Shown: one piece after another, positions 856 to 32,833 of the stretch
How positions within the stretch are numbered: the first letter of the stretch is position 1
Layout of the letters: the number at the start of each line of letters is the position of its first letter
Assembly (NCBI GenBank): GCA_003971905.1
Contig: RSEE01000040.1
Coordinates: 558,001-592,739 of the forward strand
Origin: Moniliella sp. 'wahieum'
Taxonomy: Eukaryota
DNA: 34,739 nucleotides
Direction: 5' to 3'
Notes under the pieces: generated by a model
Databases searched by the model: none
What the model was told of the DNA's origin: nothing
What the model saw: the letters and a program-made list of their open reading frames with translations, nothing else
Translations under genes and position numbers: made by a program

Positions 856-1301
856 ATCATGCATCCCCTGTCCCAAACGATGCATCATCCATCACTCGCA
901 CTCTTCTCAGACGGCGGTCTCAGCTCAATCTCAGCCCAGGCGCCGTGCGCCCGCCTGTCGCATGATGCATGATGCATGATGCATGATGCATGAGTACGAG
1001 TTGCAACAGTGCCTCAGCCTCAGGCAGGTCTAACTCAGTATTGGTACTTGACAAGCTTGACAGTACTCACCGGCCCCAGATCTCAGATCCCCAGACGCAC
1101 TCAGAGATCTCAGAATAGGAGTCTCCGACACTGCCAAGTGCCTGGTCCTGAGGAAGGCGATGGCAATGCCTCCAATACCCCGGAGGACTGACTCAGTACG
1201 TGGGCAGTCACTGCATCCTCGCCCCATCGAACCCCGCAGGAACATTCACCGTCCGCTGGCCTCTGGAGGCAGACGCCAGGACATGTGTGACATGTGACAT
1301 G
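856..1301. repeat. 7-bp TCA/TGA + palindromic-spacer island 1
   Basis: (TGA-TGCA)x4-TGA-GTAC at 963-997; GATC-TCA-GATC at 1079-1089; TGA-CATG-TGA-CATG at 1288-1301; about 11 CTCAG/CTGAG in 900-1200 by hand count. Confidence 0.8.
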
Positions 1302-1884
1302 GGAGTGACAGATGCAGTCCAACACACTAATCATCAACATCAAATATCAATCACAATAGCACTTGAGAGCTTGAGAAGGAGGCACCGTGGCAGGAGTGTG
1401 GTGCTCTTTATTGTGCCCCCATTTTGGTCGCTTTTCGTTCTCCTTCCTTCCGGGTCCTCTCTCTGTCGTGCAGAGATCGTATCCCACATATCATACACAT
1501 ATTTACGGCACACCTTGCTCATTCCCGTACATCAGATTCTCAGAGCCAACATTCTCCACACTCGTTGCATCTTCGTCGCAGCCACGACAGTCTGTCGGTG
1601 CCTTGGATATCGTCCCAAAACTATAGGACGTGCTGAGAGGCGTGCGGACATGAGAAACACAACAACGGCGAAAGAAGACTTGATTAATGCAACTGAATGC
1701 ATGCTCCGCTTAGCCCATTTCATGCCGGCGCTTTCCTTTTACCCTCGGGCTCCTTTCCGTACGTCTGCTCGTAGTTTTGTAGTCCGCGAGGGAGGTGTGT
1801 GGGGAGTGTTCTATCTGAGATATATATCAGCGCGAGTGTCTCACTTCCACATTGCGCGTGTATTGTATGTTCCTGTATGTTCGG

Positions 1885-2046
1885 TCAAGCTTCAGCTTCA
1901 AGCTTCAAGCTCAAGCTTCAAGCTTCAAGGTTGTCGGAGCCGCACTTGCCTTCACATTTGTCACATGTGCATGTCACGACGGACAATGGGATCGTTGACG
2001 CGTTGAGGTGTTGACGGTCGGGAAAGGTGATGCATGATGTGCATGA
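1885..2046. repeat. 7-bp TCA/TGA + palindromic-spacer island 2
   Basis: (TCA-AGCT)n array at 1885-1927 with two 1-nt-short units; TCA-CATG..CATG-TCA at 1961-1976; TGA-CGCG at 1996; TGA-TGCA-TGA at 2028. Confidence 0.8.
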
Positions 2047-3019
2047 GGGATGGTTGGACGGTACCGCAGCACCAGCTGGGCCAGTGCGGCAGTGACCGGT
2101 ACCGACATCCATTTGGGGAGAGAAGTTTTGTGGGGACCTCAACTGGCATCATGTAGCGCGTGTGCGGGGTTTGGAAGGCTCCGCTCACCGAGTTCTGTCG
2201 CGTTCATCAAAACTTATTGAAGACAAAGGACCAACAACTGCGCCTACTTACCAGTCTTGCTCATCCGGCGTGTGCTCTGTTAGAGCGCTTAGCTGGTCTC
2301 AACGTTCCACCTATGCAAGAGATTTTCGTCGGGTCGCCAGCAGGTCTGGGCCCCCTTCATTCGCTTTTCCGAAGGCCGAATGTTGCGCCAGTGGATACTG
2401 AGGGTGGCAGACATGTGGACGATGAACCATCGTGTCTGTAGCAATAAGACTCCTCTTCTCTGCAACCATATCATTGACGAACTTAAGGCTGCGGGACAAA
2501 GAACCGCTGCGGATAAACTGACCCGTTCATCCAGCGTGAGTTGCTTGATAACTTCAGGAAAAGAGTCTCAAAAATTGCAGGAGTCCTGTAGGCGATCTTG
2601 ATGGCATCTCTCATGATCATGTACTTTAGTCACGTCGGTAGAAGAGATGTGTGCGCGGCGGCCCCGTTCCACCTCTGTTTGCCCCTCCTTGTTTGCGCTC
2701 CGGGCCGCCTCCCCTGATTGCATCCACAACGCCTCTTCCCCAGCCTTGCTCGCCTGCCACTGCCCCAAGATGATGGAAGCATATGTGGTAAAACCCGTGA
2801 TTGTGCAAAACGTTGAATCCTCCGTCCTCCCACACACTACTCCCTTGGATGCTCTTACTACCACCCCTTCTGTTATGCCTTCACGCATCCACCGTTATAA
2901 GACCACGAGGCCGTGGCCAGGATGACGAGCGATGGTCGTCACATGTCGTTAAGTTATGGCCGAGACTCTAAGTGGGCGTTGGTGGCATAGCACGTGTCTC
3001 CCTATCGTTCTCGCCGATT

Positions 3020-5035
3020 CTAGATGAATGGTTTGTGTCGTGCCCTTGGATGCACACTGCAGCTCACGGGGTCTGCAAGCTTTGATATGGTCACAACTAA
3101 CATTGGTACTGATACTATACACGTGCGGGAGAGAACGAGAAGGTGGGGCCCAATGACCAAAAGAATGTGCAACATCACTGCGGGGACCAGTTGTGCTGTG
3201 CCTGGCGCAAACGGTTCTTCCTCGCCTTCACCTACCAAGCCCAACGCATTTTCTCGCGCCCGCGCGGCAGCCAGGGTCCGAGGGGAGTCGGATACCTCGT
3301 CGTCGTCGGCACTGGCACCTCGGCTGGCACCCGCTCCTTGTGTAGGCGCCAAACTTAATGGCGCGGGATAAGGCGGGCACTCGAGGTTTGGGCCGAGTCG
3401 AGTACCCAATGCGATCGGGGCTAAAGAAAGTTTGGGACGTACAGGCATGGCCGGTGCGGGAGCTGACGGGGGTGAGGAGGTGGTGTCACAAGAAGCTGGT
3501 GGAGGCTGGTGTAGGGTAACGGGCCGGGGCAGGGTAGGTAGGCTGCGCAGGACGAGCCGTATTTCTCGCGTCGCAGGCTCATCCCAAACTGGGTTGGAGG
3601 TGCCAATGGTCAATCGGAACCAGCCCTTGAGCCAAAGCTTTACTTCGTCCCTTCTGCTTTGGCCGAATGGGCGCCGCGATGGCTCCAGGTCAAGGGCAGC
3701 CTCTTCCTTGGTCAGAGGTGGCGGATGCACAGAGGGTTCCGTCTCGGTTTCCGATTCACTGACACTAGAGGAAGAAGCATGACCTAGATGCGTCGCGTTG
3801 GACGCCATTCTCCCCCGTGGCCGTGCCGTAGTAGGCGTTGGGACGGACGCGGTAACGGAGGACATGCCTCCCGGTCGCCCAGGTCTGGGGGTCGCAGGGC
3901 CATCGGAGCCACGAGGTAAGACCATCCCGGCTTGGGGTTGGAATAAGAGACGGTTGGGATGTTTGGGAATCTTGACTGGCGGAGGTCCTTCGGGGCCCCA
4001 GCCCCAAGCACCTGCGACAAAATGGGCCATTGATTGTTGCATGCCCTTGCTCTGCGCGACATTGAGCCAGGGGTGGGCGAGCATAGCGCGGGGCGTCCGA
4101 CGGAGCGCTGGATTTTTGTTCAGCGTATTTTTGAGAAACTGCGAAAGTAGTTGCTCCACTTGACCTGTGCCGTGTCAGGGCGGCAAGGTGGGTGGGGGAT
4201 CATTGAGAACCATCATCACCATCTCCACAGGACTCAAGTGAGCTTCGTTACCGACCAGGTACGGATTGTTCCCCGTAGCAACTTGGTAGATGGTCAGACC
4301 CAAGGACCAAACGTCACCGTTGATCCCGCACGGATGGCCCTCCAGCCGTTCGGGGGCCATGTACATGCTTGTTCCCGTGAACGTGCCGGCAATCGAGTCC
4401 ACCAGCACACCCGACACGCCAAAGTCGCACAGCTTGGTCTGGCCATCGGCTGTGAGAAGGATGTTGGAAGGCTTGATGTCGCGATGACCACACCCTGAGA
4501 GTGGAGGTAATCGAGACCAGAAGAACGCTGAAGGAATTGTGGCCATACTTTTTCCGAAATCTGCACCACCCCAACTTGTGGTACCGTTGCGAGATGGCCA
4601 GGAGCGAGCCGCCGGCACAGTACTCCATGCAGATGGAGATGACCGTGTCTTCCGCCTCGAGGAAGGAGCCAAAGTAGCGCACAATGTAGGGGCTGACACA
4701 ACGGCTGTTGATGTCGAGCTCGCGCAAGATCTTGGCAAACACTTCGGGCTCAGGGTGGTCGAAATGGTTTTTTTGGCCAGGACAAAGCCGGTCGGACGAT
4801 GCACGGCCTGATAGACTTGCCCGCTGATTCCCTCGCCGAGCGCCTTGATGGGGACAATGTCTGAGGGCGTGGAGAGGTCGAGGTCAAAGTGCCGCTGTCA
4901 TGGAGCGTGGGGGAGCGGGGGCCATCGGGGGGCAGGCTGCCGTCGGAGGAGCGCGCGGCGGCCGACGGCGCTCCGTAGCTGGTCAGCGAGAGAGCGGGGA
5001 GGCCCGGTCGGGGGCGGCGGCGGACCCAGGACCAT
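3020..5035 (-). CDS. MKK1: MAP kinase kinase, Mkk1/Mkk2/Pek1 (cell-wall-integrity) type, with long C-terminal extension; several apparent assembly frameshifts
   Basis: Stitched frames give [129 protein letters not shown]. Start ATG 5035 inferred. 3' end uncertain (~3020-3180). Confidence 0.85.
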
Positions 5036-5335
5036 GGCGGGGACGGCGGCAGGCAGCTGGCACGAGAAGGTGGTGGTGGTGGTGGCGGTGGTGGACTGGG
5101 TGGAGGGGGCGAGGCGGGGCGGGGCTAGCGGCGGAATGCCCGGTGGTTGCGTCTGTGCGGCTGCGTTGCCAGGCGAGGGGATTCGAGTATGGGTTACGTA
5201 ACCGATTGGCACGGCCTGGCCTTTCCTTGTCCAAACTGTGCACTAGCGTAGATTAGTACCTGCCCATCAGTCTCGTCCCCTACAGCGATTCAGCCTCACC
5301 TGCCTCGTCTGCTCCAGCGCACGCAGCTGCCAAGA

Positions 5336-5430
5336 CGATGGCATGGCGGCCACGGCAATGGCGATGGCGATGGCGATGGTGATGGCAATAATGATGACGA
5401 TGAAGATGGCAATGGCAAGAATGGCAATGC
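5336..5430. repeat. Degenerate ATGGCR hexamer microsatellite in the UTP21 3' flank
   Basis: Repeated atggcg/atggca/atggtg units just downstream of the UTP21 stop. Confidence 0.7.
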
Positions 5431-5456
5431 AGTTTTGTTTTTCTCGACGGGCCTTC

Positions 5457-8400
5457 TTACGCCAGTGGCATGTCGCGCAGGAAGGCCAGCGTGCCAGTGC
5501 AGTAGTCCAGCAGATCCATCACGCGCGTGGCCTGGGTTGGAGTTGGACCATGAGCTGCTCAGCGCCGCGCGCAGCAAGGCACTTGCCTCCCCGTCGCCCT
5601 GCCTGCCGCGGCCTCGTCCATCTGAACATCCCCGCTGGCGTCCACCGTCGCGCCATGGAGGATCAGCTCGTCCTGATGCAGCTTGAGGAACACGGCGAGC
5701 AGCGCCTGCACCGCCTCAAAGTCTTGCCCCGCCTCAAGGCGGAGCGTGAGGATTTGGAGGAACCAACGCAGCTCTTCCGGCAGCATCAGCGAGCGCAGCT
5801 CCACGTCCAGCTGCGGCGGTGTCAACGCATTCAGGTAAAGGAAGAAGGCACCCGACTTTCCCTCATGCAGCGCCTGCTTCAGACGGCGCACAAAGTCCGA
5901 TTCAACATCAAACATGCCGGTCGTGATGCGCGATTCGGCCGCCAGTTCGTCCCCGAGGCCCGGGCGGGATTTGGCCTCGTCCAGGTCCCACGACGAGGTG
6001 GTTCCCGCCACTTGGGGAGGAAGAAAGGCGCCTTCTCCGGCGCCTTGGGTGCTTCAATAGGCTTGTCCCTCGCCTTGATCATGTCCAGGTTCAACAGTGT
6101 CATCCAGCGTGAGCGAGGCATGGTGCTCAATGTGACCAGCGGCTCGTCTTGATCAAACATCTGCGGCGGCTGGTGTACACTGGGCCACCCACTTGCTCGC
6201 CTTCTTCCTCGCTTGGGCCCAGCGCTGACGGCGCTTGCGCCGCGCCAGCCAACGAAGGCATCGTCACCTCCTGCACCAACGCATCCTCATCGATCGCCTT
6301 GAGCGCCACATTGGCAAAGAGCGACCGATTGGCCCACAGGTACACGCCCAACACCCCCACGTGGGTTGTGGCCAAAAAGTCGAGGGTGGGTGACAGACTG
6401 ACACTGGTGGCTGTCGAAGGCGTACGGAAGACATCGACGAGGGTGGAGGTGGGGATATCAAATGTACGCACCACACTGTCCTCCGAAGTGGTAACGAGCC
6501 AGCGCGAGTCGGACGAGAGGCACATGTCGAGCACCTTGGCACGGAACCCACTAAACTGACGCACCATCCGCCTCGTCTCGAGGTCCAGCAGAACAACCGT
6601 CAAGTCTGCCAGCGAGATGGCAATCAGGTCGGCCTCGCGCGAATACACAACCTTTTGTGGCTCAGCCTCCAGCTCAATCGTCTCGAGCAGGTTGCCCGAG
6701 TAAAAGTCATAAAAGCGCACGTAACGGTCCGTAGTGCAGATAGCTACTGTGCGGTTCTTGTTGTCCATCACAGCGCCAGTCACGCGAGCACCGAGACCGA
6801 TACGAGCATCGGACTCTGCCTTGGTCCGCTTAGGTCCAGCAGGTAGCTTTTGCGCCGCATTCCACGCGGCTTGATTGATGGGCCGAGTATCAAACACGCG
6901 ACGCCTGCGCGCCGATTGCATGTAGTAGCACTCCACCTTACCTCTCGTAGTGCCAACAAGAGTAAAGTTTCCGCACGCACTGACAAAGGAGGTGGTTGCT
7001 TCGGCTTGCCCCGTGCTGAGAACATGGTTGGTCATGCGCTTGTCCCATACGGTCCAAGTCCGAGCCCAGGGAGAACCGCTGTGGGTAGTGACACATCGGC
7101 CCAGTCGCGGGAACGCGTCAGACTGAAGGACAAGTTGGTCGTCACGGGTAGCTTGAGAGTGCGCGGGTCGACACCGAGTTGGCGCGCGCGACGCTGGATC
7201 GAACCTGCAAAAAGGGGTACAAAGTCAGAAAGATGGAAACGGTAAAGAGGTAAAGACAATCCAACACGCACCTTGACTCAATTCAAAGCTCCTGCTATCG
7301 CGGACGATCGACAGGCAGCGCACCGACAGGTCACGCGAAGCGGTCAATAAGTTCTTGCCGTTATCGCCATAGTGGCGAACAATGTGAGGGGGCTCAAAGT
7401 GACCCCCGCGCGATTTGAGGAGCCGTGGGGGGGCCCTCCCGCAGAAGCATCGTCGAGCCATCCAGCGCCGCATTCCCTCCCAACTTGGAGTCGGTGATGG
7501 CAGCGTCAGGGTCATCAAAGAACCATTGCTTGTACGAGTTGTCCGCCGACGAGGAAATTAGCAGTGGTTGCCCCGGAACAAAGGCCAGCCCTCCCACCGC
7601 ACGCTCGTGAGCATTGCGAATGACGTGCAACACGCGGGCAGGTCGTGGGACCGCGTTTGGGCAGTTGGATCGGACGATGCAACAGGAGCGTGAACTCCGT
7701 CCAGGCTGTAGATGGCGATGGTCCCGTTCGTACCGGCCAGGGCAATAGTATGCTGCTTCTCCAGTCGCTCCGGAACGAAATCCCGTCTCGGGCCAAGACG
7801 TCGACGTCAGAACTTTGCTCGGCGCCCTGATCGGATGAGGGGGAAAGGCGGAGATGGAAAATTGGCTCATCGAGACGAACGTCGTGGATCAGCACGTGAC
7901 CACTGGCGTACCCAATCGCAACAATGTCCAGCGCAGGGCTTTGCTCCAGGGCAACCACCCGCTTTCCGGCCTCTTCGACGGGACCTTGAAGCGCTTGAGG
8001 GTTGGCCAGGCCATAGAGATGGTCGGCCCCAAACGCGTGCACGCGTTTCCCGCTTCGCACATTCCACACTTCCACACTGCCGTCAGAGAAGCCAACAAGG
8101 ACCTTGTTGAGATGGGTGTCTGGGTGAACCAGCGAGGTGGCTCTCCGCTCCGTTTCTGTCGCGCCCAAAAGCAAGTCCACCCTCTTTACGCTCACTGTAC
8201 CTTCCAACAGACCCCATGTAAAAGCCACCGCCCGTCCGTCGACAAGGCACAAACAGTGTGGCCAAAGACAATCATGCGGGCCAAGGGGGTGGGTGTGTCG
8301 AGCTGCTCTTCCATGTAGAGCAAGTTGTGCGGAAGGGTGACCGCTTGGTCCTCGTCCCTCTCACGAAGAGGAGCTCGAGTCTGAATCTGAATCAGAGTCG

Positions 8401-9080: not shown

Positions 9081-9758
9081 TGGCCCACGTAGCGCGTCCC
9101 AGTTTCAACTTTCACAAGCGGCAGCGCCAGACGATACCCAGCGCAGTCACGTGCTGCCTCCCGTGCCTACCCCGCCTCGGCCTGCCCCCGCTTCGCTTCG
9201 GTGCCTCTCGGTCAGTGCGGGGTAGGCTGGCTTACAGGGTGGCCCCCACCGGCTCTGCGTTGGTATGCGAAACATCGGCGGCTGCTGGGCGGCTGCTGGG
9301 CTGCGTTGGACAGGGAAAGCGCGGCGGGCAGGGCGGCGCACAGGATGCTCAGCGTGCGCGCGGTTCACGGTAATAGACGCGCTGGCCGCCGGGTAGATCT
9401 ATATGCGGGAGAGTGCGGTGGGCGGGCACACGGAAGGTGCGCAGCGCCATCGGGAGAGTGGTGGGTGCTGCGTACTAGGTACTAGCCGCAACAGCAGAGC
9501 AGTGGTGGCGCGGCTGGGAATCACATGCTGATCGTCCCCGTTAGTCCGATACCTGAGTCTCCGGCTGAGGCCTCAGGACCAGGTCCATGCACGGGGGTTA
9601 TTAGCACTGCCTGGCACTGCCTCGCCCGCCTCGCACCTGTGCTCTCCCCCCACAATCGAACCGTCTCGGGTTTAAATTGATCGCCACGGCACCCCACACT
9701 ACCATCCAATCTGCCCCCCCCCGATTTAGGAGCGCCTGCCCACCCCCACCTTCGCATT

Positions 9759-10960: not shown

Positions 10961-11325
10961 CGAGCTCATAATATCCTCAGTATTGCAAATGTGAATGTAT
11001 GGCATGTGCATCAAGGTATTGCGCCCTCGCTCCACCAAGCACAAATATAGTACCGCTCGCGGACCGCACCCAAACCCACGGCACTCGTCTTGCGAGACTC
11101 ATGCTCTCTAGCCAGCACGACGACCAGCATCAGTCATGGATGAGCGCACTGGCCCACAGCGAGAGGCCGATCTGATGAAGCGGTGCTTTTTGGAAGGCCA
11201 GGGTTCGCGTCCTGAGGACGCTAAGCGTTAAGAGAGAAAAAAAGGACGAGCTTGCAGTGCCAAAGCTGGCTTTATATACTTGCTTGTCCTGGCCCACTGT
11301 GTTCCGCCGCCTGAATTTTGAGCTG

Positions 11326-11372
11326 CCTAGTCACTAGTCACGCGATCATGCGTCATGGATGCATATCACGTG
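11326..11372. repeat. 7-bp TCA + palindromic-spacer island 3
   Basis: CTAG-TCA-CTAG-TCA-CGCG-(A)TCA-TGCG-TCA at 11327-11355. Confidence 0.7.
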
Positions 11373-11533
11373 CACGACGCGCACAGGACGGGGATTGAAC
11401 GTTGACTAGGTTGACTGGATATTGCGTAGCGTGTCTCGATGGGCGTTTCTGTGCATCGTTATCGACGTTATCGCGTTAATCAGCTTCACGTTTCCGTGTA
11501 TCGTTATCAGCTTCACACATCTTGCATGCCCCT

Positions 11534-11828
11534 TGTTGAGCGCGCTCAGGCTGAGCCCTGATGTATGTCTGATGGCTCGTGCATTTGGCATCAGGGACCC
11601 TCTAGACCCTCCTCACAGGCCCTCATGCCTCAGACGTAGGAATTCCGTTGGTCTCTCCGCTTCTGTTTTCCCTGTTCCGCAGCAGCCTATAATAGCTGCT
11701 GGTGGACTGGCTGCTTTTGGTATCCCTCCTATCAGGTGCTCTCGGTAGCTTCGACCACCACCACCACTAGTGCGATTCCCTCAATCTCAAGGCCCTTCGC
11801 GACTCCAGCTCTCATCAAAGTATCAACA
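11534..11828 (+). repeat. Candidate 5' LTR of the copia remnant
   Basis: TGTTGA...TCAACA termini (295 bp), internal TATAAT at ~11688, located ~95 bp before the gag-like ATG at 11923. No canonical PBS or matching second LTR. Confidence 0.35.
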
Positions 11829-12392: not shown

Positions 12393-12465
12393 CCATCTCA
12401 AGGTCTCTCCGACCCATCCCAAGGTCCCTCCGACCCATCCCAAGGTCCCTCCGACCCATCCCAAG
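12393..12465 (+). repeat. 21-bp tandem repeat (about 3.5 copies) inside the copia gag region
   Basis: Unit CCATCCCAAGGTCCCTCCGAC; one frame reads PSQGPSD repeats. Confidence 0.9.
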
Positions 12466-14877
12466 ACCCCCCTGGCCTTCTGGACCCGTTACGATCCCGC
12501 CCTTGGGTCAGACTCCTAAGGCTGTATCCGCCACAACTCATTTGTCTGCCCCTGTGCCTGCACATTCTGATGAGCCTCCTCCTGTCGACGAGGAAGTTAT
12601 TGCCGCATTGACGAAGGCAAGCGCTCATAATCTAAGCCCGGACAATCTGGTGGACATGGCAAAGGCGTGTTGGGGTCCTGATGTGGGCTGCCGTGCTGCT
12701 TTTCTAGTTTTACAGAATCGCAACACTCACTCCACATTGGATTTTGGGGGACCCCATCTGAGCCCTTCCAGTCTCTGGCCGAACTTACGCGCAGCGTCAA
12801 CGCTGAGGACAAATACATTTTCGGACAGAGTTTTGGCCCTGGGTGGATTTGGTTCTGAGCCGATTGGACGATGCGGTGGACGGTGCACGTGCGTTGATTC
12901 AGGACGGCCAAGACGATCCTCATTACACATCTTCTAGATCGTAAACTCCACGCTCCGCTCTTGGCCTATCTACACTGCGATGTTAGCTCCACCATCCCAT
13001 CCTCTGAAACTGGCGGCATGGCTTCCGAGCTGTTCCGCATCCTGGTTCAACGCTACGGCCAATCGTCACCGGCCGAGCAACTTGCCCTTCTCGGCAACTT
13101 ATTGACCTTAGTATTGGGACTTCGTCAGGGGCCGCATATGTTGAACGGCACCGCAACCTCGCTTACAAACTGCGCGCGCGCTTCGTCAACCCCTCCCTGA
13201 CTGGGTATTACGGTCCATTTTGCTCAATGGTCTCCACGATCCTACCTTTGCCGCGTGTAACCCTCATGCAGACTATGATGGTCTTTTGATGTTGATCACG
13301 AGTCGGGCCGCGACGCCCACTCAGTCCTTTATCCCGAGCGCAAGTGGACGCAGTTCGCGTCTTCGCCCTGCGTCCCGTCAGAGTTCTTTTTCCTCCGGTG
13401 GCCATTCGTCCCGGAGCAGTGGTTCTTCCCAGTGGAGTGAGGTGAGTCAGGGCAGAGGGTTTGTGCGTAGGCCGCGCAGCTCTAGTCTACACGCGTGTGG
13501 AACTGCGTATTCTGGGTCTCAGGGCGCCGCCAACTGAACCACTGCGGTTACCGTTGCGGCTACCGTGGATCCTGCTTCAGGCTCTTCCGTGACAGAGCGT
13601 GCACGCCCCGTGAGTACTGAGTTTTACACCAGGCTTTATCACGAACCCGCCACCCATGCCACGGAAGCATCCGTACCGCACCCAGTCCTACCCCTCCTCG
13701 TCCTCATGCGAATAGGACTGCGCGGGGAAAGCTGTATTACACACCCTCCCTGCGTAATGTGATTCGGAAGCGCGGCCATCCGTCTTCAAGGACAAGAACG
13801 CACTCACTTCACACTCAACATCCCAGTCAGGCTATCGTAACATAACTCTTACCGATGGCTGGGTCATGTGCAAGCCGACGGGTATTGGCCCTCTCTCTTT
13901 GTATAACTATCCCTGTAATTATCCCTGTCCCTGTATCCTGGACCTTCTGTGTTTGGTTGTTCATGTCGGACCTCCCCCAACTGTTTTTACTGTGATGGCT
14001 CTTTTCCTCTATTAACTTGAAGAGTGCCAATCACTTTTCGATGACTGTGAGCTCGAGTGTTTGGTCGTAGCGTGACGGAAAGACTTCTATCTACCGTATC
14101 CCGCAGGTGATGATATAGTACACCTCGACTTTGCTAAGGACGCCACTTACAACGCCGACTCCAGGAAGTTCATTGCGCATTGAACCTATATTCCGGTACC
14201 CGAAACCACAGTCTCTACAGTCCCCATCCCCTGACGCAATTCCGTTTCGGTCATATTCTGTCGAGAGGCCATGAGCAATGGAAACGAACATCCATGTCTC
14301 CTGTGGCCAGCTCTCACTGCGCAACCGACTCCCAGCTTCCTCCTTCTCATTTTCTCCGTCAAAATACGTGGCTTCAGTTCGAGCACCTGGGCTATTCTCA
14401 ATGCTTGCGGCTTTGCACGGGGTCGGCCTGCTCGTCCCGTCCCGACACTCTGTTTGCTGCTGCCTTGCTCGCTCGTTTTTCCGATGCCCGCTTATCGGAC
14501 TCACGGCGAAGCTGCTGTCGGTTTGCTGACACACCTGAAGGGCACTGCTGAACATTCCTTCTGCGGCCGCGCCAGACCCACTTCCTTGAGCTGCACACAC
14601 GCATACTTCCAAACACTTCCCGTTGCCTCGGACAAGCGCAACTCAAGGTCTGTCTCCGGGCACGTTATTATCGCGTCGTGCACAGCGTACCCGTATCGTG
14701 GAATAGCAACACGTCCATTCCTCTTCTCATCCTACCCACTCGGAGTAGGATTCTTCACAGACTCATCAGGGGAGAAACGTTAATATGCGATGAGAACATG
14801 TATTTTGAGCGGTTACGCCCCTTTGTACAGGGTGGGGGGCAAGGAGTGGGCTGGGGTGGGGTTAGACAGGAGATGGA

Positions 14878-16124: not shown

Positions 16125-16547
16125 GGCCGAGACGGAGATGGAGGTGGAGATGGAGGTGGAGGGGGGGATGCTGTGGGGTGCTGCTGCTGCTGCTATGGTG
16201 GTCCAATCCGAACTACTCCGCAGCGCATTTGTTAATTTGTTCGCATCGGACACCGGACATGATGCTGGGCATTGCACCGATCTTTGAAATATACCATTGC
16301 GCTGGAGCCGCACGGCACGGCGCAGGAGCAGTGTCTCAGCGCAGCAGCCACTGCGTCGCCCTCGGCTCCGGGCCACGGCGCTTCCCGGGTGCTGCCAGTG
16401 GGCTGCCTTTGCCATGCGTCCGGCCTCAGACGAGCTGCCTCCAGCTTCACGCCAGGCGCCGCTCTTGAGCCTACCACCTGCCCCCTTCCCCCTCTCCCTC
16501 TGCCCCCCGGCTCGCCGCTCGCCGCTCCCGCACCTTCTCTCCCCGCC

Positions 16548-17411
16548 ATGGCTGTCCCCCCCTCCTGGAAGGACCTGAGCAAGGCCACCACCGACCTGCT
16601 CGGCAAGGACTACCCCCTGGGCAGCGCCACCCTCGATCTCAAGACCGTCGCACCCAATGGCGCCACCTTCCATGTCCAGGGCTCCCGTCTGAACGGCAAG
16701 AACGGCCTGTTTGGCGACTTGGAGGTCAAGGTGGCCAACAAGGCCAAGGGCCTTACCGCCTCGACCGTCGTCACCTCGTCGAACCAGGTGCGACAGACGC
16801 TGGAGGCGGAGAACTACCTGGTCAAGGGCTTCAAGCTGGACTTTGTTGGTACCTTCCATCCCGACAAGGGCACCAAGACAGGTGTCATCAACACCACCTT
16901 TAAGCAGCCGCGACTGCACACCCGCACGCTGATTGATCTCAGCAGGGCCCTTTATTGTTCACGACAGTGTGGCCGGGCGGACGGCTTGCTGGCTGGCTAC
17001 TCGGCGGTGGTCAACACGCAGACCAAGGAGCTGACCAACTACGAGGTGGGCGCCGGCGTGTATGCGCCGGACTACTCGATCACCTTGCAGAGCACCAAGA
17101 AGCTCACGCACTATGTCGCGTCGTACACCACCGCATCAATGCCGCTCGAGACGGGCGCGCGGATCCATTACGACGGGTCGAAGCCAGTGCCGACGACCAA
17201 GCTCGAGCTGGGCAGCAAGGTGTACCTGGACAATGCGGCGTTCGTCAAGGCCAAGATCAACAACGATGGCATCCTGGGCCTGGGCTACACACAGGCGCCC
17301 GTCCTGGGGTCAAGGCGGCGCTGGGCCTGGCCTGGACACCAGGCCTTCTCGACGACCGAGACGGGCACGCCAGCGCACAAGGTGGGCGCGGCGCTGTTCT
17401 TCGAGGCGTAG
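16548..17411 (+). CDS. POR1: Mitochondrial outer-membrane porin (VDAC)
   Basis: MAVPPSWKDLSKATTDLLGKDYP N-terminal helix, FKQPRLHTR, ASYYHR-like segment, KVYLDNAAFVKAKINNDGILGLGYTQA, HKVGAALFFEA*. About 288 codons, no intron, small compensating frameshifts. Confidence 0.95.
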   Translation: MAVPPSWKDLSKATTDLLGKDYPLGSATLDLKTVAPNGATFHVQGSRLNGKNGLFGDLEVKVANKAKGLTASTVVTSSNQVRQTLEAENYLVKGFKLDFVGTFHPDKGTKTGVINTTFKQPRLHTRTLIDLSRALYCSRQCGRADGLLAGYSAVVNTQTKELTNYEVGAGVYAPDYSITLQSTKKLTHYVASYTTASMPLETGARIHYDGSKPVPTTKLELGSKVYLDNAAFVKAKINNDGILGLGYTQAPVLGSRRRWAWPGHQAFSTTETGTPAHKVGAALFFEA

Positions 17412-17913
17412 CGGCGGCAGGGACAGACGGCTGGTGATTGGGTATCGTTTGTGCTGTGATGTGTGAGGGCGTGCGCTGGTAGCTGGGCAGGTGGAGGTGG
17501 GGGGGAAGCAGTCGCATGGTAGCTGTTGGGGTAGAGCGGGGGAGGGGCAGGGTGCGCGGGGGGCTGTGGGCAGCGGAAGCGGAAGCGGAAAGACAGCGTT
17601 TCAAATAGGGATAGGGGGAGGGCGCTCAGGCTGAGCACGTGTTTGCCATCCACCCGGGACAGATCGGCGTGCGTCCCGCGTGGCACCTGGCCACCTCGGC
17701 CCCCCGCTGACATCATTCCGGCGCTCCCATCCAAAAAGTCGGGCGCGACGCTGGGTGTTGGCGGGGCAGTCTTCCTGCCACCATCTCCGCCTGAGCGCGT
17801 CGTCTTCGAGCTCGACTTCGTCGTCGTCTTCGTCTTCGTCCTTCGCCTTCGTCTTCGTCGTTGTCTTCGCTCTCGCCTTCCCCCCCACCTTCCTCCCCCC
17901 CCGCCCCGCCCCC

Positions 17914-24238: not shown

Positions 24239-25072
24239 GCTCGTCGCGCGCGCAGCAGCGGACACGGAGTGGAGGTGGAGAGGAGTCGGGGGATCAGAGG
24301 CGGCGCCGCGTTGGCTTATTTCTTGTTCTCGCCAACATTCTTCGCCAGTGGCAAAATCTGAAACTCGGTGCAATGCCTGCCCAGAAGCAATGCTTCTCAA
24401 ATAAATAGGCCAACGCATTGCAAATCAATAGGACGTCGCTTGAAAGTAGCCGCGTCTGTCGCGTACAGGACCCAACGTAGTTGCCCCGCCGACTGGCAGC
24501 CTAGCAGCTTCGTAGGCTAATGCTGGCGTTCGTCCAATCCTCCTGAGGAAAGAGAGCTAGGGCGGCGCTAAAGACGGATGGACATCAGGCAGTCGAGGCA
24601 AGTGGCAGTGGGGTGGGGTCGTCTGGCAAGTCAACTGGCATGCCGCGGGCATGGTGGGCGCATGCCTCTCCCTGGGCCCATGCATGTTGTGGCGGGGCAG
24701 GGTCGAATGCATGGCGAGGGTAGCTGACACAGTGAGGTGGCGCCTGCCACGCACGGGTACCTCAGATGCCTACTATAGTACCTGCTGACGTCTGCCTGGA
24801 CCGTTCATCATTCATTTCGCCCCCCTTCGAACCACTGGTGGCCTCGCGCCTGGTGCGAGGAGACTATCCACAGTTCGGTAAAGTTGGGATGGAGAGAAGT
24901 GTTGTGCGCAAAGGTGTACTGCGCCAAGACGCCATCCTCGCCGGCCATTAAGCGCTATGGAGCGAGACAAGGGATGTCTCCGGATCGAACCCCACCACGG
25001 ATCGTTGAGCATCGACGTTTATGAGGCGGGAAAAGCGGAGAAGGGGACCCAGGCGGAAGGTAAGCGTGGGGA

Positions 25073-26111: not shown

Positions 26112-26217
26112 TGCTGAGATGGGGCTGGGAGAAGCGAGCTGAGCGGGGCTGTGGGAAGTTGATGTGGATGGAGCAGGACGATGGAATGCGGCCGCCGCTC
26201 GTTTCTGTCGGCCCAAC

Positions 26218-26280
26218 ACGCGTGGGCGAGGCGCGCGTCGCTTGACGTGACGCGGCCGGACGCGGCGGAAAGCCGCGCGC
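26218..26280. promoter_or_regulatory. MCB-like (ACGCGT/CGCG) cluster upstream of RFA2
   Basis: ACGCGT at 26218-26223 plus further GCGCGT, ACGCG and CGCGCG sites ~110-170 bp upstream of a DNA-replication gene. Confidence 0.5.
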
Positions 26281-26970
26281 CGACTGGACAAATTCCGCTC
26301 CGCACCCCCCGCCTTCCCAATTTATAGCCTGTCTGCGCCTTGCCAAGAACATGCCTTCAAGAGCAGCAATCTGCAGCAACCTCCCGTCGCTTGTGCTCTT
26401 CGATTCTTCGGGATGGCCTGGCGTCTTTTCCACGGCAGCGCTTCGCATCGTGTTGCTGCTTCCGACCCCTGCCAATCCAGACCGTGTTGGGCAAATCAAA
26501 TCCAGTCGTACATTTCGGCGCCGTAGGACTTTGCGCAATACTGAGGGGCTACTATGTGGGTCATAGTAGACAGGCTGCGGTACGGAGCAGCCGATGCCAG
26601 GGAATACCCGCTATCAGCTCAACACCAGATGGGGTTAGCCCATGTCAGGTCTCCTTCCGGGCCTGCCCCAGCAGTTGCCCACAAGCCCCTCTCTCTCTGC
26701 GTACGCCCGCCCAATCTGCCTCCCAACGGCGCCGCCGCCAGCAGCAGCAGCACTGAAATGACTAGCTCTGCCGCACTCCCAGCAGCCGAGAGACCATGGT
26801 AGCGCGGTTGCATTGACCACTCCATGAATGCGCTCTCCTATCACGGCATTACTAAACAGACTGTTGTCCAATGTCACCGACTACTAACCCCAAGAATGCG
26901 CATGTCGATGTGGATGGGCAGTGCGTCGCACGCGAATAGGTCGCAGGGCGTCGGCAGGACACGCACCGGC

Positions 26971-27414
26971 TTAGTTGCGTGTGCGCTGGGCACAAAACCA
27001 GAAACGAAAGGATCAGTACCTCAACTCACAGAAGCGTAATGAACGTCTCAGTCTTTGGGGGAAGAGCAAGAAATCGTACCTGCTTGTGTCGGGGGTGGGC
27101 CTTGCAAATGATAAATGTCTTCCCCCGCCGCCGCACCACCTGACACGAGCTGCACCGCTTCTCAAGCGAAGTGCGGACCTTCATACCGCGCTCAGTCGCT
27201 GGCATGACGGGACCGTGAGCGTGGACGTGAGCGTGGACGGGGGCTGGGTAGCAAGAGGAGTGGCGAGGGCGCGTGGATGCGGGTCGAGGCTCGCAAAGCC
27301 CGGGAGCCGGTGCGGCGCGGAGCGTGTGCACGCTGCGCAGCGCCACAGAAGACGCCGACGGAGCGTGGGCGTGCACAACAGGGCGGATAAGCGAACGGAG
27401 GGAGCGCCCAGCAT
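26971..27414 (-). CDS. RTC6: Mitochondrial ribosomal protein bL36m; intron 26986-27079
   Basis: Presequence-like N-terminus, then [41 protein letters not shown] with the CxxC...CxxxxxH zinc ligands. Confidence 0.9.
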
Positions 27415-27816
27415 CGCTGTCAGATTTAACGTCGTCGTCGTCGTTGTGGGCAACTCCGCAGTGGTTAGGTTGCTGGGAGAACAACGATGCGCTGGCAGAT
27501 TACGTATGCGGGGCCGATTCGCGGCCATGCACCATGTTCCTCCAGCTTTCGAATTGTAAAATGTTCATTTTACGTGTGGGGGCGGGCACGGGGGCCGTGT
27601 TGGGGCGATAAGGGAGAGAGGGTTGGTTATAGGTTCCTCGCCTCCTCTGGCCTCCCCTGGCCTGTCCTGCCCTCTCTTCGGCATGTCGTCGCGACTACGC
27701 CGACCAGAGGAAAGCGAAAAGTATGTCTGCATGTACCAAAGCGACGTGGACGGCAGGAGAAGCAAGTAACCTGCCCCCCCCCGATACACCATCTCCTCCA
27801 GCTGCACCAATTATGA

Positions 27817-28427
27817 ATCCTAAGGCACGCCGTGGGCCGCGCCGCGTACCAGGTCCGCCTCCCCGACTACCTACACCTCCATGACGTGTTCCATGTGTCC
27901 CGCTTGCGAGCCTACACCCCTGGTGACGTGGTCCCTGCCCGCTTGATCGAGCCCCCGCCCTCCTCTCCCCGAGTTTGCTGATGATGGTGCGGTTCATCAC
28001 GAGGTCGAGCATGTCCTCGACTCTCGCCGCAAGGGTCGTGGAGGCCGCATTGAGTACTTTGTTCACTTCCGGGGCTATCCTGTCCACGAGAGGGAGTGGG
28101 TACCCGCTGCGGACATGTCTCATGACGCCGAGCCAGTGGTTCGTTTCCACGCCCTCTACCCCGATAAGCCTGTCTCCCATGCCCGCCGACTCGCCCTCTC
28201 TCGCCTTCGTCGCCGCCCGGGAGATGAGGTCTGAAAGGGGGCAATGTCATAGTTTGGCTGATCTCGCTCCCATTTCCAATTTCTTCGTCTCGAGCGTCTC
28301 GCTCCTTCCCTGTTCCTTCCACTTCGCACCATGTCCTCTGTTCTTGCTTCTTCCCCACGAACGATTGCTACAACCCCCTTGGCCTAGTCCGATCCTGGTC
28401 TCCCTCGCCTTAGCCCCGACTGTGACA
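27817..28427 (+). mobile_element. 5'-truncated Ty3/gypsy chromovirus: integrase C-terminus, chromodomain, PPT and 3' LTR
   Basis: VGRAAYQVRLPDYLHLHDVFHVSRLRAY, then (frameshift) EVEHVLDSRRKGRGGRIEYFVHFRGYPVHEREWVPAADM...FHALYPDKP, stop 28232-28234, PPT GAAAGGGGG, LTR from 28245. Confidence 0.9.
28245..28427 (+). repeat. 183-bp 3' LTR of the chromovirus
   Basis: Termini TGTCATAGT...ACTGTGACA (8/9 inverted match), 3 bp after the PPT. Confidence 0.8.
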
Positions 28428-29227
28428 ATGTCCCACACGTTCTCTCTCCCCGCGGCTCCCAGCACGGCGTCGCGCCACCACCCGGCCCCCGTGGCGCGTT
28501 TTTGTGGCTGCAATGCTTTCGCCGGCGCTGCTTATGCCCTTGTCTGGACTAGCGGTGGTACTCGTAGCTTCTCCAGCCCCATAGTGTTTTGATTGCGCCG
28601 TCGAAGGGTACCGGCATCGGCAAGCGAAACAATGTAACGTTAATGGCATGGTGTAAAGCAACGGTGCTGGGCTTGTCTTGACGGGTCTCAACTTTTACAA
28701 CCCAGCCAACAACTCCTTCACTTACCGCCAATCTGCTGGGATCACCTATACAGCTTTTTCCCGACGACAGCTTTTTCGAGGAGGCAATATGCCACAGTAC
28801 AACATCAATGGTAGCAACATAATGTGCTTGTTGACATAGATGATCTGGCAGCACGGACTCTACACTATCAACAATTCCAACCGGATCACTCTCTCTCCCT
28901 TCTCGGCGTACGGGGCATTGCTGCAAGCATCGCGATGCAACAGTTCCTCGGAACAAGCGCAATGGTATGGCCAAGAGAAGCACCTCAACGACTTCCAGAT
29001 CGCGATCGCGATACTCATTACGATGAGACAGCCTACTACTTTCAACTCTGCAACTGGGATGGGTCCCTCAAGCTGTTCATGTGGCACCCTTTCAATCCAC
29101 CTCAAATGTTACCGGCCGAAGCGCTTAAACAAGCTGTACGTCCCTTATTTCGCTCAGTTTTTCCCTGAAGCACATATACTGAATCGTACTGCTTCTATAG
29201 GCTAACGACGCTAATGGTGGTAGTTAA
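28428..29227 (+). pseudogene. ROT1: ROT1 (ER protein-folding chaperone) pseudogene retaining an intron (29136-29200)
   Basis: Signal-peptide-like stretch, NNVT, *SNGAGLVLTGLNFYNPANNSF, DDSFFEEA, IWQHGLYTIN, YFQLCNWDGS, FNPPQMLPAEAL match the Rot1 motif order (GTWSS..V.TG..FY.P / DG..EEA / QHG.Y / LQLY..DG / PP.MLP). In-frame stops TAA 28654 (conserved Trp position) and TAG 28837. Confidence 0.85.
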
Positions 29228-29615
29228 GTGAGTTTATCAGGTCTCCCACACACCGACAACTGGCTGTGTCTGCACTTCCATCGCCTCACGTTGGGACCTT
29301 CCTGTGGTCTTTTTCTTCCCCACCTCATCAGTGTTCTGCAATGCCATCCACTTATGCCATCCACTTCTCCTTTCTGTCTTCTTGTCATGAGTGCAACTGG
29401 TACCTTACCGCTGGGGCAAAACTCCCCATCCGCCCCCCCACCCCACCCAATGGTTGGCTTGTTTATATATTCACAATATATCCATACGGAGTCATCATTC
29501 CTGTTCCCCTCTGTTTCTCGCCATTGTGGTAGCTCTCTTTCCAAAGGCTCGTCAAATAACCCTCGTGGGTACAGTGGGTCCAGCAGATATAGACCAATAG
29601 AAATTGAAAACAAGA

Positions 29616-29664
29616 TCGGCTCGACAGTGTTTCCCAGTCGGCTCGACAGTGTTTCCCAGTCGGC
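29616..29664. repeat. Perfect 22-bp tandem duplication
   Basis: TCGGCTCGACAGTGTTTCCCAG x2 followed by TCGGC. Confidence 0.9.
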
Positions 29665-30068
29665 GAAAAGAAGGGAGGCGGGAGTGGGCGCGCTTGTCGA
29701 GCCTTGCTCAACTGCACACGCGATCGACGACATGGGCTGGTACTCAGAGGCTGACTCACGGCAATCCATTATGGTGAGTAGTCCTAATGGATCTTTGTCC
29801 TCCCAACCTGTCCCACCGTTTTGAAAGGGGGGGCAATCAGCCGGGGAAGTTTACGTTGAGCACGGGAAGTCCCGTTGAACGCGACCGACGCACGCCATCA
29901 ACGAGTGTCAGCACTTATAGGGCGAACTTGGAAGTAGCCACCCTCTCCTTGGGGCTGCATCGTGTGTACGTGGCAAGCCCAGTAACATGGCGCAGGGACC
30001 AGGGGTTTCCATCCAAGCGGCACATGATGCACTTGTACATAATGTTACTCGGTGTATTCAACGCTCTC

Positions 30069-30936
30069 TGTCACGGGCGGGCGCCGCCAGGGGCCCGCCC
30101 TGGGGTTTTTGGGGTACAATCCCTTAGGCGACGGTAGGTCGACTCACGGTAGTTTCGGGCTTAGGCTGGTTGGTGTGTCCGAGCGGAGCTAGGGACGAGG
30201 AGAGGCCTTTGGTGGGGCGGCTGCACGTGTGGCAAGGCTGCGTCTGCACCGGCTTGGGCCGTAGTAACGTGTCTGAAGCCTCCGGGACTTAGGGACGGGA
30301 GGAGGCAGCGGCGGACAAACACTGCCTTAACTGAGACTGGGAATCGCCGCGCGAGGAGGGCTCGCGCGATTGGACTGACGAAGGCTGGAGGACGAGGTCG
30401 GAGGAGAAGTCGGACGCTAACAAGAAGAGCTGCCTGTACTGGATCAATTGGCTGGAAACGGGCAGGAGTCGGACAGGATGGGCGGGAAAGGGACGAAGGT
30501 GGAGACGAGAGATGACGAGAGGATGACGAGAGGATGACGAGAGGATGACGAGAATGGAAGGTGGGGGAAAAGATCCCCATCAACCAGGGTACAGGCAGGA
30601 TCAAAAGGGAAACGGATACAAGGGGGTGTAGAAAGGAAGACATGTCAAAAGCGGGTTGGTCGCCGCAGGCGCGACAGAGAAAGGAACGGAAACGGGGACG
30701 GGACGGCAGATGCCGCCACGGCACTGGAAGCTCGGTGGCCTTATTTAGGCCGGCCGACTTGGACTTGGGCGGGGGGCTACTTGTCGCGCGGAGCATGGCC
30801 CTTCGGCCACGATACTTGATTTAGCCAACCATCATCACACTTGGTTGGCCTGCGGAGCACGCTCTACTGGGCATGTGCGGAGCAGGCGGGCCTTAGCTTG
30901 GGTCGGACCATCTCGTGTCCGCCGCAGCCCGTGACA
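30069..30936 (-). mobile_element. Solo LTR (868 bp) with 5-bp target-site duplication
   Basis: Perfect 10-bp terminal inverted repeats TGTCACGGGC...GCCCGTGACA, flanked by CTCTC at 30064-30068 and 30937-30941. Orientation inferred from TAAATA at ~30745 followed by a pyrimidine-rich tract on the minus strand. Confidence 0.92.
30511..30553. repeat. 11-bp tandem repeat (x4) inside the solo LTR
   Basis: GATGACGAGAG units. Confidence 0.9.
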
Positions 30937-31397
30937 CTCTCCTCTGAAGCGGAACGCAACTCGACAGGTGGAAGTGTCGGCATGACGGGGGTTTGTGGGA
31001 GCCTCTGGCAAGCAACCACTGGATGCCAGAACTACTAAACCAAGCATTTGTTTCCTGAGCATACGAAAAGCTGTTGATGCAATGAGCACTCAATCTGAGT
31101 CTGGACGCTGACCTGCCCCTTGGGGGCTGGCAGGCTGGCTCCAATAATCTCGCTGGTTGGGTCACCCCGCGCGGTCCCCGTCATCGAATACCCCTGGCTA
31201 GCTTTAAGCTTAAAGGCCCAATCCAAATCATCCCATCCGCTCCGGAGCCCCACATAGCCCGCGGACCTGTCTCGAAGGATTAATGACACTTGTCAAATAG
31301 ACTGCGCACGCGTCGCGTCGTGTCCTGTCGTGTCTCCTGGAAGAGGTTGGACCATCCCGCACCATCATACGTCACACATCACACGTCGGGTAGCCAC

Positions 31398-31880
31398 TGA
31401 TGCGTGACGCGTGATTAGTGACTCAGGTCTCGATCTCATGCATCTCATGCATTACCGGTTACCGCATACCCAGGTGCTCAGGCATTCAAGACGATCAACG
31501 TTCTCAAGCTAGCTTCAAGCTGGGTCTCAGCACATCAGGGGCTCAGATCCTCAGATCTCAGATGCAGGCTACATAACCTCAGGCCTCAATATTATGTACT
31601 CCACGTGCCCTCATCGACTCATCCTCGTCTTAGTATTTCACAGGCCGTCGCAGATCGCAGCTCGACTGTTACAGCCACCAGGTTTGAACATTTGGACGGA
31701 ATATGCACTGCTTTACGGTGGCGTGCATTCTGAATCGTATGTGAATTGCGCATGGAACATGCACGTTGGACCCCACTCGACTCAGTACTCTGTGTACTCA
31801 GTCTCAACTCAGTCACGTACTCAGTTACCTGGTGTACATAGAGCCCCCCTCAGCCTCATCGCCTCAGCGCCTCAGCGTCA
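31398..31880. repeat. 7-bp TCA/TGA + palindromic-spacer island 4
   Basis: TGA at 31398, 31405, 31412, 31419 (spacers TGCG, CGCG, TTAG); GATC-TCA-TGCA; AGCT-TCA-AGCT; TCA-GATC-TCA; TCA-GGCC-TCA-ATAT at 31579-31592; TCA-GTAC; dense CTCAG. Confidence 0.8.
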
Positions 31881-32270
31881 TCCGCCTGTCTTCGTTTCTC
31901 CACCTCTGAATCTGCTTTGTTTCGCCTGCCGCGCCTGTTTTCGCCCTGTGCTGTACACAAATCCGAGTGGAACACCTACCTCCGCCCAGCGCCCACAGCG
32001 CCCACGGTCACCATCGGCCCAAGGCCCTCATCTCATCCCACGCTACGCGCCCTCGTCCACAGCACACCCGAGACCACGCGTCCTATTCCTTGCCGTAGGC
32101 CGTAGAGAGCAAGCACCTCCATATGAATGTGAACGTGTGAACCTTCGTCCAATCATCGACACCATGGCGCACAACCGTAATCGACGTAATAATCACACAA
32201 TCTTAATCTTAAAGCTTAATCACCGCTCAGTGCTCCGCCTGTTGAGCTCCGCAACTCTGTCCACACTTTG

Positions 32271-32833
32271 TGAAGCTTGACGCCGTACACTCACCGGTCC
32301 GGCCGGTACTCCCATGTCCCAAGATCCCAGGATCCCAAGAGCTAATCGTGTGTCAGCATGTCAGATCGCCGGTCTGACGAACATCTGATCGCTCTTGGAG
32401 TGCACTTAGCGCACATGGCACTACTCGTCTCAGATCTCAGGCGAGCCTCAGGCCCCAGTTGAGGCTGCAGGCATCAGGAGGTCTAGTACGTTCAGCACGT
32501 TCAGCGTCCAATGCGCCCAGTCCTCCATCTTGAAGCTTGAGGCTTGAGGCCTGAGGCCTGAGGCCTTGAGGCTTGAGTACTGAGTCCTACTCAGTACTCA
32601 CTACTCGGTACTCTCTTCTCTCACATGCTCACGTCTCAGAATCCCAGACCTGAGTATTGAGTTAAGCATCAAGACCTGGGTCTGAGCGCCGGAGCGCCCG
32701 GCGTTCGCTGAGCCCTCGCTCAAATTGTTCACAATCAACGTTCTATCATCGGTGGATCATCGATCACACATCTCGTCCATCATCGATCACCAACATGCTC
32801 GGGAGCATGCGATCCCAACCAGTCACTAGTCAC
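32271..32833. repeat. 7-bp TCA/TGA + palindromic-spacer island 5
   Basis: TGA-AGCT-TGA 32271; TCA-GATC-TCA 32430; mixed array TGA-AGCT-TGA-GGCT-TGA-GGCC-TGA-GGCC-TGA-GGCC-(T)TGA-GGCT-TGA-GTAC-TGA 32531-32583; TCA-GTAC-TCA 32591; TCA-TCGA-TCA 32757 and 32780; TCA-CTAG-TCA 32823. Confidence 0.85.

Follow-up and report, generated by a model that had tools for sequence, protein, structure and literature searches.

The stretch of DNA analysed here, a single window of about 35 kb (34,739 nucleotides (nt), to which all results below refer) from contig RSEE01000040.1 of Moniliella sp. 'wahieum', holds three islands poor in open reading frames (ORFs) in which the triplets TCA and TGA recur at 7-bp spacing around self-complementary 4-mers; the structure and possible origin of this lattice are the subject of this report. 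Judged from sequence, the window holds nuclear DNA from a basidiomycete fungus. Pfam was scanned with 119 ORF translations, comprising 30 of the 96 ORFs of at least 130 amino acids and 89 of the 179 ORFs of at least 70 amino acids near the islands, and returned matches to a protein kinase, Utp21, a eukaryotic porin, a mitochondrial carrier, an OB-fold protein, ribosomal protein L36, Rot1 and DUF7082. The porin (VDAC) ORF (16263-17411, + strand) shares 43-46% identity with its top named relatives (Tilletiaria, Exobasidium and Pseudozyma) and 64-76% identity with five unnamed assembled proteins; since the named relatives do not exceed 46%, the host lineage is poorly sampled, and it appears to be that of a basidiomycete without an annotated genome in the protein collection searched. 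Two ORFs adjoining the islands, 74-856 (- strand) and 30164-30820 (- strand), are rich in arginine, proline and alanine and look spurious.

For all counts the islands were defined as A (850-2100), B (11200-11700) and C (31200-32900), summing to 3,453 nt. Their parts are listed here together with a weak fourth patch; units in which a short direct repeat is split by 2 nt are entered as candidate scars, a term taken up below.

855-1301, no strand: left lattice arm of island A, including a (TGATGCA) array of about 4.9 copies at 960-993
855-879, + strand: left arm of the 25-nt imperfect inverted repeat that bounds island A; begins CATCA, and its first 12 nt are a lattice unit
1047-1062, + strand: candidate scar CTTGACA-AG-CTTGACA, with the 7-nt direct repeat CTTGACA twice and TGA exactly central
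1302-1884, no strand: lattice-poor middle of island A
1885-2046, no strand: right lattice arm of island A, including a (TCAAGCT) array of about 6.7 copies at 1885-1929, with 1-nt deletions
2015-2039, - strand: right arm of the island A inverted repeat; ends TGATG, and 2028-2039 is a candidate 5+2+5 scar, TGATG-CA-TGATG
9472-9577, no strand: weak fourth patch, with GTACTAG twice at 9472 and a 12-nt perfect palindrome at about 9566 containing TGA-GGCC-TCA
11312-11630, no strand: island B, a short lattice region
11401-11416, + strand: candidate scar GTTGACT-AG-GTTGACT, a 7-nt repeat centred on TGA, in which AG is the reverse complement of the last two bases
31363-31880, no strand: left lattice arm of island C, mostly in TCA orientation
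31434-31449, + strand: candidate scar TCTCATG-CA-TCTCATG, a 7-nt direct repeat
31577-31588, + strand: candidate 5+2+5 scar CCTCA-GG-CCTCA; the far-side sequence is unrelated
31881-32270, no strand: lattice-poor, C-rich middle of island C, with a few 7- and 9-nt tandem duplications without TCA or TGA
32271-32960, no strand: right lattice arm of island C, with weaker units up to about 32960
32490-32505, + strand: candidate scar GTTCAGC-AC-GTTCAGC, a 7-nt direct repeat
32529-32563, + strand: array CTTGAAG CTTGAGG CTTGAGG CCTGAGG CCTGAGG
32574-32600, no strand: 12-nt inverted repeat with a 3-nt loop, at which the lattice switches from TGA to TCA orientation

The segments named in an earlier sequence-only reading of this DNA are correct as far as they go, but the lattice extends beyond them, over 11312-11630 (where 11326-11372 had been given), 31200-31398 and 32833-32960. 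The unit TGA-GGCC-TCA that was placed at 9566 is indeed present, but it is the sole inverted case (TGA..TCA) and may be due to chance. Neither Rfam at the gathering threshold nor a tRNA scan gave a match, and the middle of island A (1302-1884) has no Pfam, Rfam or tRNA match. Island B also contains short repeats of a different kind at 11457-11517, namely three copies of CGTTATCG and two of GTTA(A)TCAGCTTCAC, the latter lying 27 nt apart; these repeats might be regulatory or transposon-derived.

A 7-bp lattice with self-complementary spacers

We counted all pairs of the form TSA-Nk-TSA, where TSA denotes T[C/G]A (S = C or G) and k is the length of the spacer between two TSA. Across the whole window the count reached its maximum at k=4 (57 pairs, compared with 16-48 at the other values of k from 0 to 14), and 27 of these 57 pairs enclosed a palindromic spacer, for an expectation of about 1/16. 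Units made of TSA and a 4-nt palindrome were concentrated at 501-2500, 11001-11500 and 31001-33000. Relative to 300 dinucleotide-preserving shuffles of the islands, the islands contained a large excess of k=4 pairs (40 versus 6.9 +/- 2.6, shuffle maximum 17) and of k=4 pairs with palindromic spacers (25 versus 0.4, shuffle maximum 3). The palindromic excess was kept when tandem copies were collapsed (18 loci versus 0.4, shuffle maximum 3). The remaining 31 kb or so of the window held 17 k=4 pairs, 2 of them palindromic, and nothing comparable to the islands. The sequence-only reading had claimed a 7-bp TSA-N4-TSA lattice with mostly self-complementary spacers; by the k=0-14 count and the palindromic fraction against dinucleotide shuffles, run in this window, and by the persistence of the excess after tandem collapse, this lattice is real.

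Within the islands, a palindromic 4-mer flanked 90 of the 186 TSA (17.9 in shuffles; 86 of 792 outside the islands), and 48 of the 186 were centred in a 7-nt odd palindrome (10.2 in shuffles). TSA without a partner at +/-7 still showed a palindromic flank in 43 of 117 cases, and the effect is therefore not made by tandem copies. When triplets were compared, a palindromic flank was found at 48% of TSA, at 28% of TTA/TAA and at 8-13% in six other triplet classes; the effect is a property specific to T-S-A, shared in weaker form by TTA/TAA. Almost all of the 16 palindromic 4-mers are used in the lattice. Furthermore, even spacers are enriched in the islands (40, 15, 15 and 14 pairs at k=4, 6, 8 and 10) and odd spacers are depleted (2 and 4 pairs at k=7 and 9), the expected number being 6.8.

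Several local variants accompany the regular lattice. Cores of T-T-A or T-A-A follow the same grammar at 31200-31216 (AGCT-TTA-AGCT-TAA), 31452-31464 (TTA-CCGG-TTA) and 32199-32221 (CTTAA-AG-CTTAA), so that bases other than C and G can also occupy the middle position. Four copies of TCCCA at 32310-32340, spaced by 7, 8 and 8 and joined by the palindromes CATG, GATC and GGATCC, look like a lattice variant with CCC as the middle base. The spacers at 31363-31420 (TACG, CACA, CACG, TGCG, CGCG and TTAG) look like CGCG units eroded by CpG-to-TpG/CpA changes, which suggests that arrays start perfect and decay afterwards and hints at cytosine methylation or deamination in this DNA. Outside the islands, a lone unit of the 5+2+5 form, TGAGT-AC-TGAGT, lies at 13609-13622, overlaps GTGAGT, a possible intron donor, and may be a product of chance.

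Anatomy of the repeat unit

The lattice is not a simple tandem 7-mer. In its basic unit, two direct copies of a 5-nt sequence, TSA with 2 further nt, are separated by a dinucleotide that reverse-complements the outer end of the repeat. Motifs consisting of 5 nt, 2 nt and the same 5 nt were found at 108 positions in the islands and at 69 in the nine-fold larger remainder, and the 2-nt spacer reverse-complements one end of the repeat in 39 of the 108 and in 8 of the 69, respectively, chance being about 2/16. Runs of identity at lag 7 that span at least 5 nt occurred at 11.0 per kb in the islands versus 1.3 per kb elsewhere, and about 30 island loci carry a 5-nt direct repeat at this lag. The island runs are predominantly short, with 29 of the 38 measuring only 5-6 nt and 9 reaching the 7 nt or more that clean tandem duplication would give.

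The middle base of TSA is identical in 26 of the 27 pairs with palindromic spacers and inverted in one, so that the second TSA is a direct copy and not the product of fold-back. Among the 26 direct TSA-palindrome-TSA pairs, 22 carry a 2-nt extension of the repeat on one side or both; 15 of these are extended on one side only, and their other flank agrees at chance level (zero matches in 8, one match in 7), so that they are not decayed 14-nt full duplications. Where a palindromic 7-mer lies beside a non-palindromic one, the inverted dinucleotide stands between the direct repeats in 14 cases and in the mirror arrangement in none, with no shared half in 4 cases, whereas random decay of perfect arrays would predict 1:1 and not 14:0. 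The array at 32529-32563 displays this order in both directions, the non-palindromic CTTGAGG being flanked on its left by CTTGAAG, in which the left half is palindromised, and on its right by CCTGAGG, in which the right half is palindromised.

At four loci (1047-1062, 11401-11416, 31434-31449 and 32490-32505) the direct repeat is 7 nt long, with TSA exactly central, and is split by 2 nt of the same inverted type; two of these 7+2+7 loci can be read in one register only. The clearest is 1047-1062, which has a single register and a run of exactly 7, and in which the splitting AG is the reverse complement of the first two bases of the repeat. Direct repeats of fixed length around a short inverted copy of the neighbouring bases are the classical picture of a target-site duplication enclosing palindromic (P) nucleotides.

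Repeats of other kinds are also present in the window. The intergenic region between the porin and the mitochondrial carrier contains a perfect 14-nt inverted repeat on a G7/C7 run (17495-17508 and 17877-17890, with 368 nt between), and three tandem repeats lack the TSA grammar: a 21-nt unit in about 3.5 copies at 12393-12465, a perfect 22-nt unit in about 2.2 copies at 29616-29664, and the 11-nt unit GACGAGAGGAT in about 4.6 copies at 30504-30553.

Possible excision scars and alternative origins

We tentatively favour the view that the islands are fields of transposon excision scars, and hold it to be quite possible and still well short of established; the repeat anatomy is observed, and from it we infer the transposon, its mechanism and its return to the sites. 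A cut-and-paste DNA transposon would insert with a 7-bp target-site duplication nnT(C/G)Ann, and on its excision the flanking DNA ends would be sealed as hairpins. The host would open each hairpin about 2 nt off the tip, leaving a 4-nt self-complementary overhang (the P nucleotides), and end joining would fill in one overhang while the other is lost. By these steps a target YZ-TSA-WX would become YZ-TSA-WX-X'W'-TSA-WX, the 5+2+5 form at spacing 7. Its 5-nt direct repeat would contain two TSA, identical in their middle base, that lie 7 bp apart and enclose a site-specific palindromic 4-mer. Were the second copy of the duplication to stay whole, the product would be a 7-nt direct repeat split by 2 P nucleotides (7+2+7, spacing 9). 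Once a 7-mer had been palindromised its overhangs would match, so that each new insertion and excision would add an exact 7-nt unit and the array would grow, a process to which replication slippage may contribute. Hairpins on the flanking DNA, with end joining as the next step, are on record for hAT, Transib, RAG and MULE elements (PMC5499845); since the palindromes seen here are even, an enzyme cutting precisely at the border of the element is more likely than a canonical hAT element.

Other duplication lengths were tried and rejected. A 3-bp duplication of TSA with P nucleotides would fix the spacers as TGGA or TCCA, and if 2+2 nt of element ends were added to such a duplication instead, each palindrome would require an element of its own. 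A 5-bp duplication of TSA plus WX also predicts P nucleotides on the TSA side, and none are seen. An 8-bp hAT duplication would leave, as its classical +7 scar, a 6-nt repeat with one complemented base; on manual reading, 4 of the 8 six-nt runs fit, no more than chance would give.

A number of observations weigh against excision scars as the source of the islands. Among the 419 candidate pairs scanned in the window, none proved to bound an element with an nnTSAnn duplication at its ends (the best had 9/14 terminal matches), no transposase domain was found among the 119 translations scanned with Pfam, and no T-S-A-centred 7-bp target preference was found in those parts of the literature that were examined. 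The density of scars is very high, with about 30 loci of the 5+2+5 form plus arrays in 3.4 kb, and would need strong targeting or local hopping, which is assumed here. The predicted spacings 3 and 5, which would arise if both overhangs were lost, are depleted (one pair at k=0 and three at k=2); pairs at spacing 11 (11 nearest-neighbour pairs) mostly violate the predicted flank rule on manual reading; and spacings 6 and 8 are frequent (13 and 17), requiring 1-nt variation in the join. Isolated odd-palindromic 7-mers (22 of 117) are not directly predicted and are more than the model needs. The even palindromes of the islands have their centre at the end of the repeat, whereas Ac/Ds scars are centred on a single complemented base, which counts against a canonical hAT element in particular. 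In addition, the inverted repeat of island A agrees with a resident transposon, and all of the evidence comes from one 35-kb window.

The main rival view, possible if unlikely, is that the islands are themselves resident non-autonomous DNA transposons, perhaps Plavaka- or CACTA-like, with the lattice serving as subterminal repeats (pseudo-termini or transposase-binding sites). A 25-nt inverted repeat with 84% complementarity encloses island A (855-2039, 1,185 bp); its two arms align with a score of 30, where shuffles reach at most 24, and agree at 10 of the 14 positions outside the lattice. The termini of the island, 5'-CATCA..TGATG-3', match those given for PlavakaB in PMC12730594; CATCA occurs 53 times in the window, and the termini are therefore weak evidence. 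Islands A and C both consist of lattice-rich arms about a lattice-poor middle, and island C contains an inverted match between 31410-31441 and 32805-32834 (score 26, shuffle maximum 21). The first 400 nt of about 27 published Plavaka consensus sequences (the part of the PMC12730594 supplement that was compared, by eye) include three starts with a related grammar: one with T-S-A plus a 6-nt palindrome at period 9, one with GCTGA plus variable 4-mers at period 9, and one with CACAG and palindrome-rich spacers. In Muta1, likewise, the terminal motif is palindromic, and excision is promoted by subterminal repeats (PMC5499845). Against these likenesses, most of the Plavaka and all of the Kyakuja consensus starts shown in that supplement have other subterminal motifs, the use of nearly all 16 palindromic 4-mers is odd for binding sites, and the lattice about island C extends past the putative element ends. 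Island A lacks a clean target-site duplication, TCG preceding its left end and TGC following its right end (CG versus TG in a 2-nt reading), so that the 2-3 bp duplication of PlavakaB type was not found there. A non-terminal lattice pair scores 29, which is comparable to the terminal pair of island A. Neither related copies nor an encoded transposase were found in the window, with no such Pfam match among the scanned ORFs, and a metagenome scan with the island A terminal pattern returned four unrelated, bacterial-looking contigs without a lattice. The sequence-only reading had also considered that all islands might be fragments of one transposable element, but the islands have only the lattice arrays in common; a single family was rejected on this ground, and three unrelated families within 35 kb would be needed. 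A foldback architecture fared no better: the mirrored and the direct-order chain scored 7 versus 7 in island C and 5 versus 4 in island A, block shuffles reached the observed mirrored chain in 154 (island C) and 150 (island A) of 200 trials, and the mirrored arm order that resident transposons might display is unsupported. An apparent clustering of inverted 8-mer matches at the island centres proved to be geometric. The two views may be combined, since subterminal repeats may be shaped within elements by the same cut-and-rejoin chemistry and scars may accumulate inside mobile elements.

Excision scars have further competitors. An improbable variant would have a transposon, or a domesticated RAG-like or hAT-like nuclease, cut and rejoin DNA repeatedly at a few intergenic landing pads, each scar making a better palindromic nnTSAnn target, so that the process feeds itself. 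Ordinary replication slippage or hairpin-assisted expansion of odd-palindromic 7-mers, without any transposon, is quite improbable. It would suit the true arrays, which reach 4.9-6.9 copies, and the folding of the two longest of them as single-stranded DNA beyond shuffles (z -5.7 and -4.7), but the other four of the six folded arrays do no better than shuffles (z +0.05 to -1.8), most repeat runs are 5-6 nt and not at least 7 nt, one-sided flanks are random and not decayed, and the 14-to-0 asymmetry of arrangement would be unexpected; nor does slippage give a reason for T-S-A or for the palindromic flanks at isolated TSA. The same folding results bear on the proposal in the sequence-only reading of a cruciform with a C:C or G:G mismatch every 7 bp: the potential to fold exceeds that of shuffles in the two longest arrays and not in the other four. 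That reading had also suggested a binding lattice for a general chromatin or replication factor. A functional lattice, in which a protein or family of dimeric factors reads T-S-A at 7-bp spacing or A-NNNN-T palindromes in promoters, would agree with the restriction to ORF-poor DNA, with the frequency of the A....T form among 6-nt palindromes (55 of 89 in the islands versus 68 of 456 elsewhere) and with CTCAG as the commonest core (44 of 186 in the islands). We nevertheless consider it very unlikely, and do not favour the binding lattice: the constant part is three bases only, nearly every palindromic 4-mer is used, the pattern is confined to three islands and missing from other ORF-poor, lower-GC, likely intergenic stretches of the window, and binding leaves the direct repeats with an inverted dinucleotide unexplained, the fine structure being that of a duplication-plus-inversion scar and not that of spaced binding sites. 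The third suggestion, a mutational footprint, came closest, but the process it named, template switching, is not the right one. Such switching, or fold-back synthesis, in replication or repair would fit the over-representation of short palindromes and the one true 12-nt inverted repeat (32574-32600), but fold-back would complement the middle base (TCA..TGA), as seen in 1 of the 27 palindromic-spacer pairs, and the inverted part is just 2 nt, lying between direct repeats; it is exceedingly unlikely. An assembly or base-calling artefact is hardly credible either: 31 kb of the same contig lack the pattern, which is tied to particular loci, is highly structured and includes decayed units.

Known systems and implications

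The closest mechanistic parallel is offered by hAT (Ac/Ds) footprints of yeasts and plants, in which, as here, copies of the target-site duplication surround a joint with short palindromic P nucleotides. The mechanism there, a flank hairpin that is opened and joined, is the one proposed for the islands; for Ds footprints in Candida albicans, PMC5873905 describes short deletions and palindromic P insertions of at most 3 nt at the joint. Ac/Ds makes an 8-bp duplication and a palindrome centred on one complemented base (for the centring, see PMC5873905), whereas the islands point to 7 bp and even palindromes; moreover, known Ac/Ds footprints are single events at donor sites, whereas the islands are kilobase fields of dozens, with no element seen in the window. 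Even palindromic P nucleotides, as found here, arise from perfect flank hairpins at V(D)J coding joints and in Transib and other elements of the CMCT clade (PMC5499845), a clade whose shared catalytic motifs are described in PMC12730594. Transib and CMCT elements duplicate 2-5 bp, compared with 7 here, and RAG joints lack a target-site duplication, so that any link of the islands to this clade would be by analogy only.

The duplication length suggested for the islands is that of Kyakuja and hAT7, the Basidiomycota DNA transposons with 7-bp duplications listed in PMC12730594. Neither was found in the window, and the Kyakuja consensus starts shown there carry subterminal repeats of the GGGTGGGCC type, unlike the TSA lattice. 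PlavakaB and CACTA-like elements share with island A the CATCA..TGATG termini and an inverted repeat, and with the islands the combination of repeat-rich arms and a unique middle, and a few of the published Plavaka consensus sequences compared resemble the islands in their T-S-A or CACAG cores with palindrome-rich spacers. The published PlavakaB ends, as far as they were seen, continue as CATCAG(C/G)AAAA..., unlike island A, which also lacks the 2-3 bp duplication and is accompanied by neither copies nor a transposase in the window. In Muta1, a foldback MULE, the palindromic terminal motif matters for transposase binding and the subterminal repeats raise the frequency of excision (PMC5499845); its foldback arm order was not found here, and its excision is described there as mostly precise. 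For the 7-bp repeat of Ustilago maydis that the sequence-only reading named as a possible analogue, a literature search on Ustilago heptamer repeats gave nothing relevant.

Literature searches on palindromic 7-bp basidiomycete repeats, fungal excision footprints and the literal repeat strings returned no description of dense scar fields. If the islands are indeed excision scars, the duplication length (7 bp), the target (nnT-S-Ann) and the hairpin chemistry of an unseen element would be readable from host DNA alone, and repeated insertion and excision would be able to build sizeable intergenic tracts in a compact fungal genome. This account would also provide a testable alternative to protein-binding codes for periodic motifs. 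Should the islands instead be resident transposons, the lattice would represent a novel type of subterminal repeat, from a little-known transposon group of an unsampled basidiomycete lineage. Were the self-feeding landing pads to prove true, kilobase non-coding islands would be almost wholly written by scars; they would supply new regulatory DNA and at the same time naturally record the stagger, target and hairpin chemistry of the enzyme.

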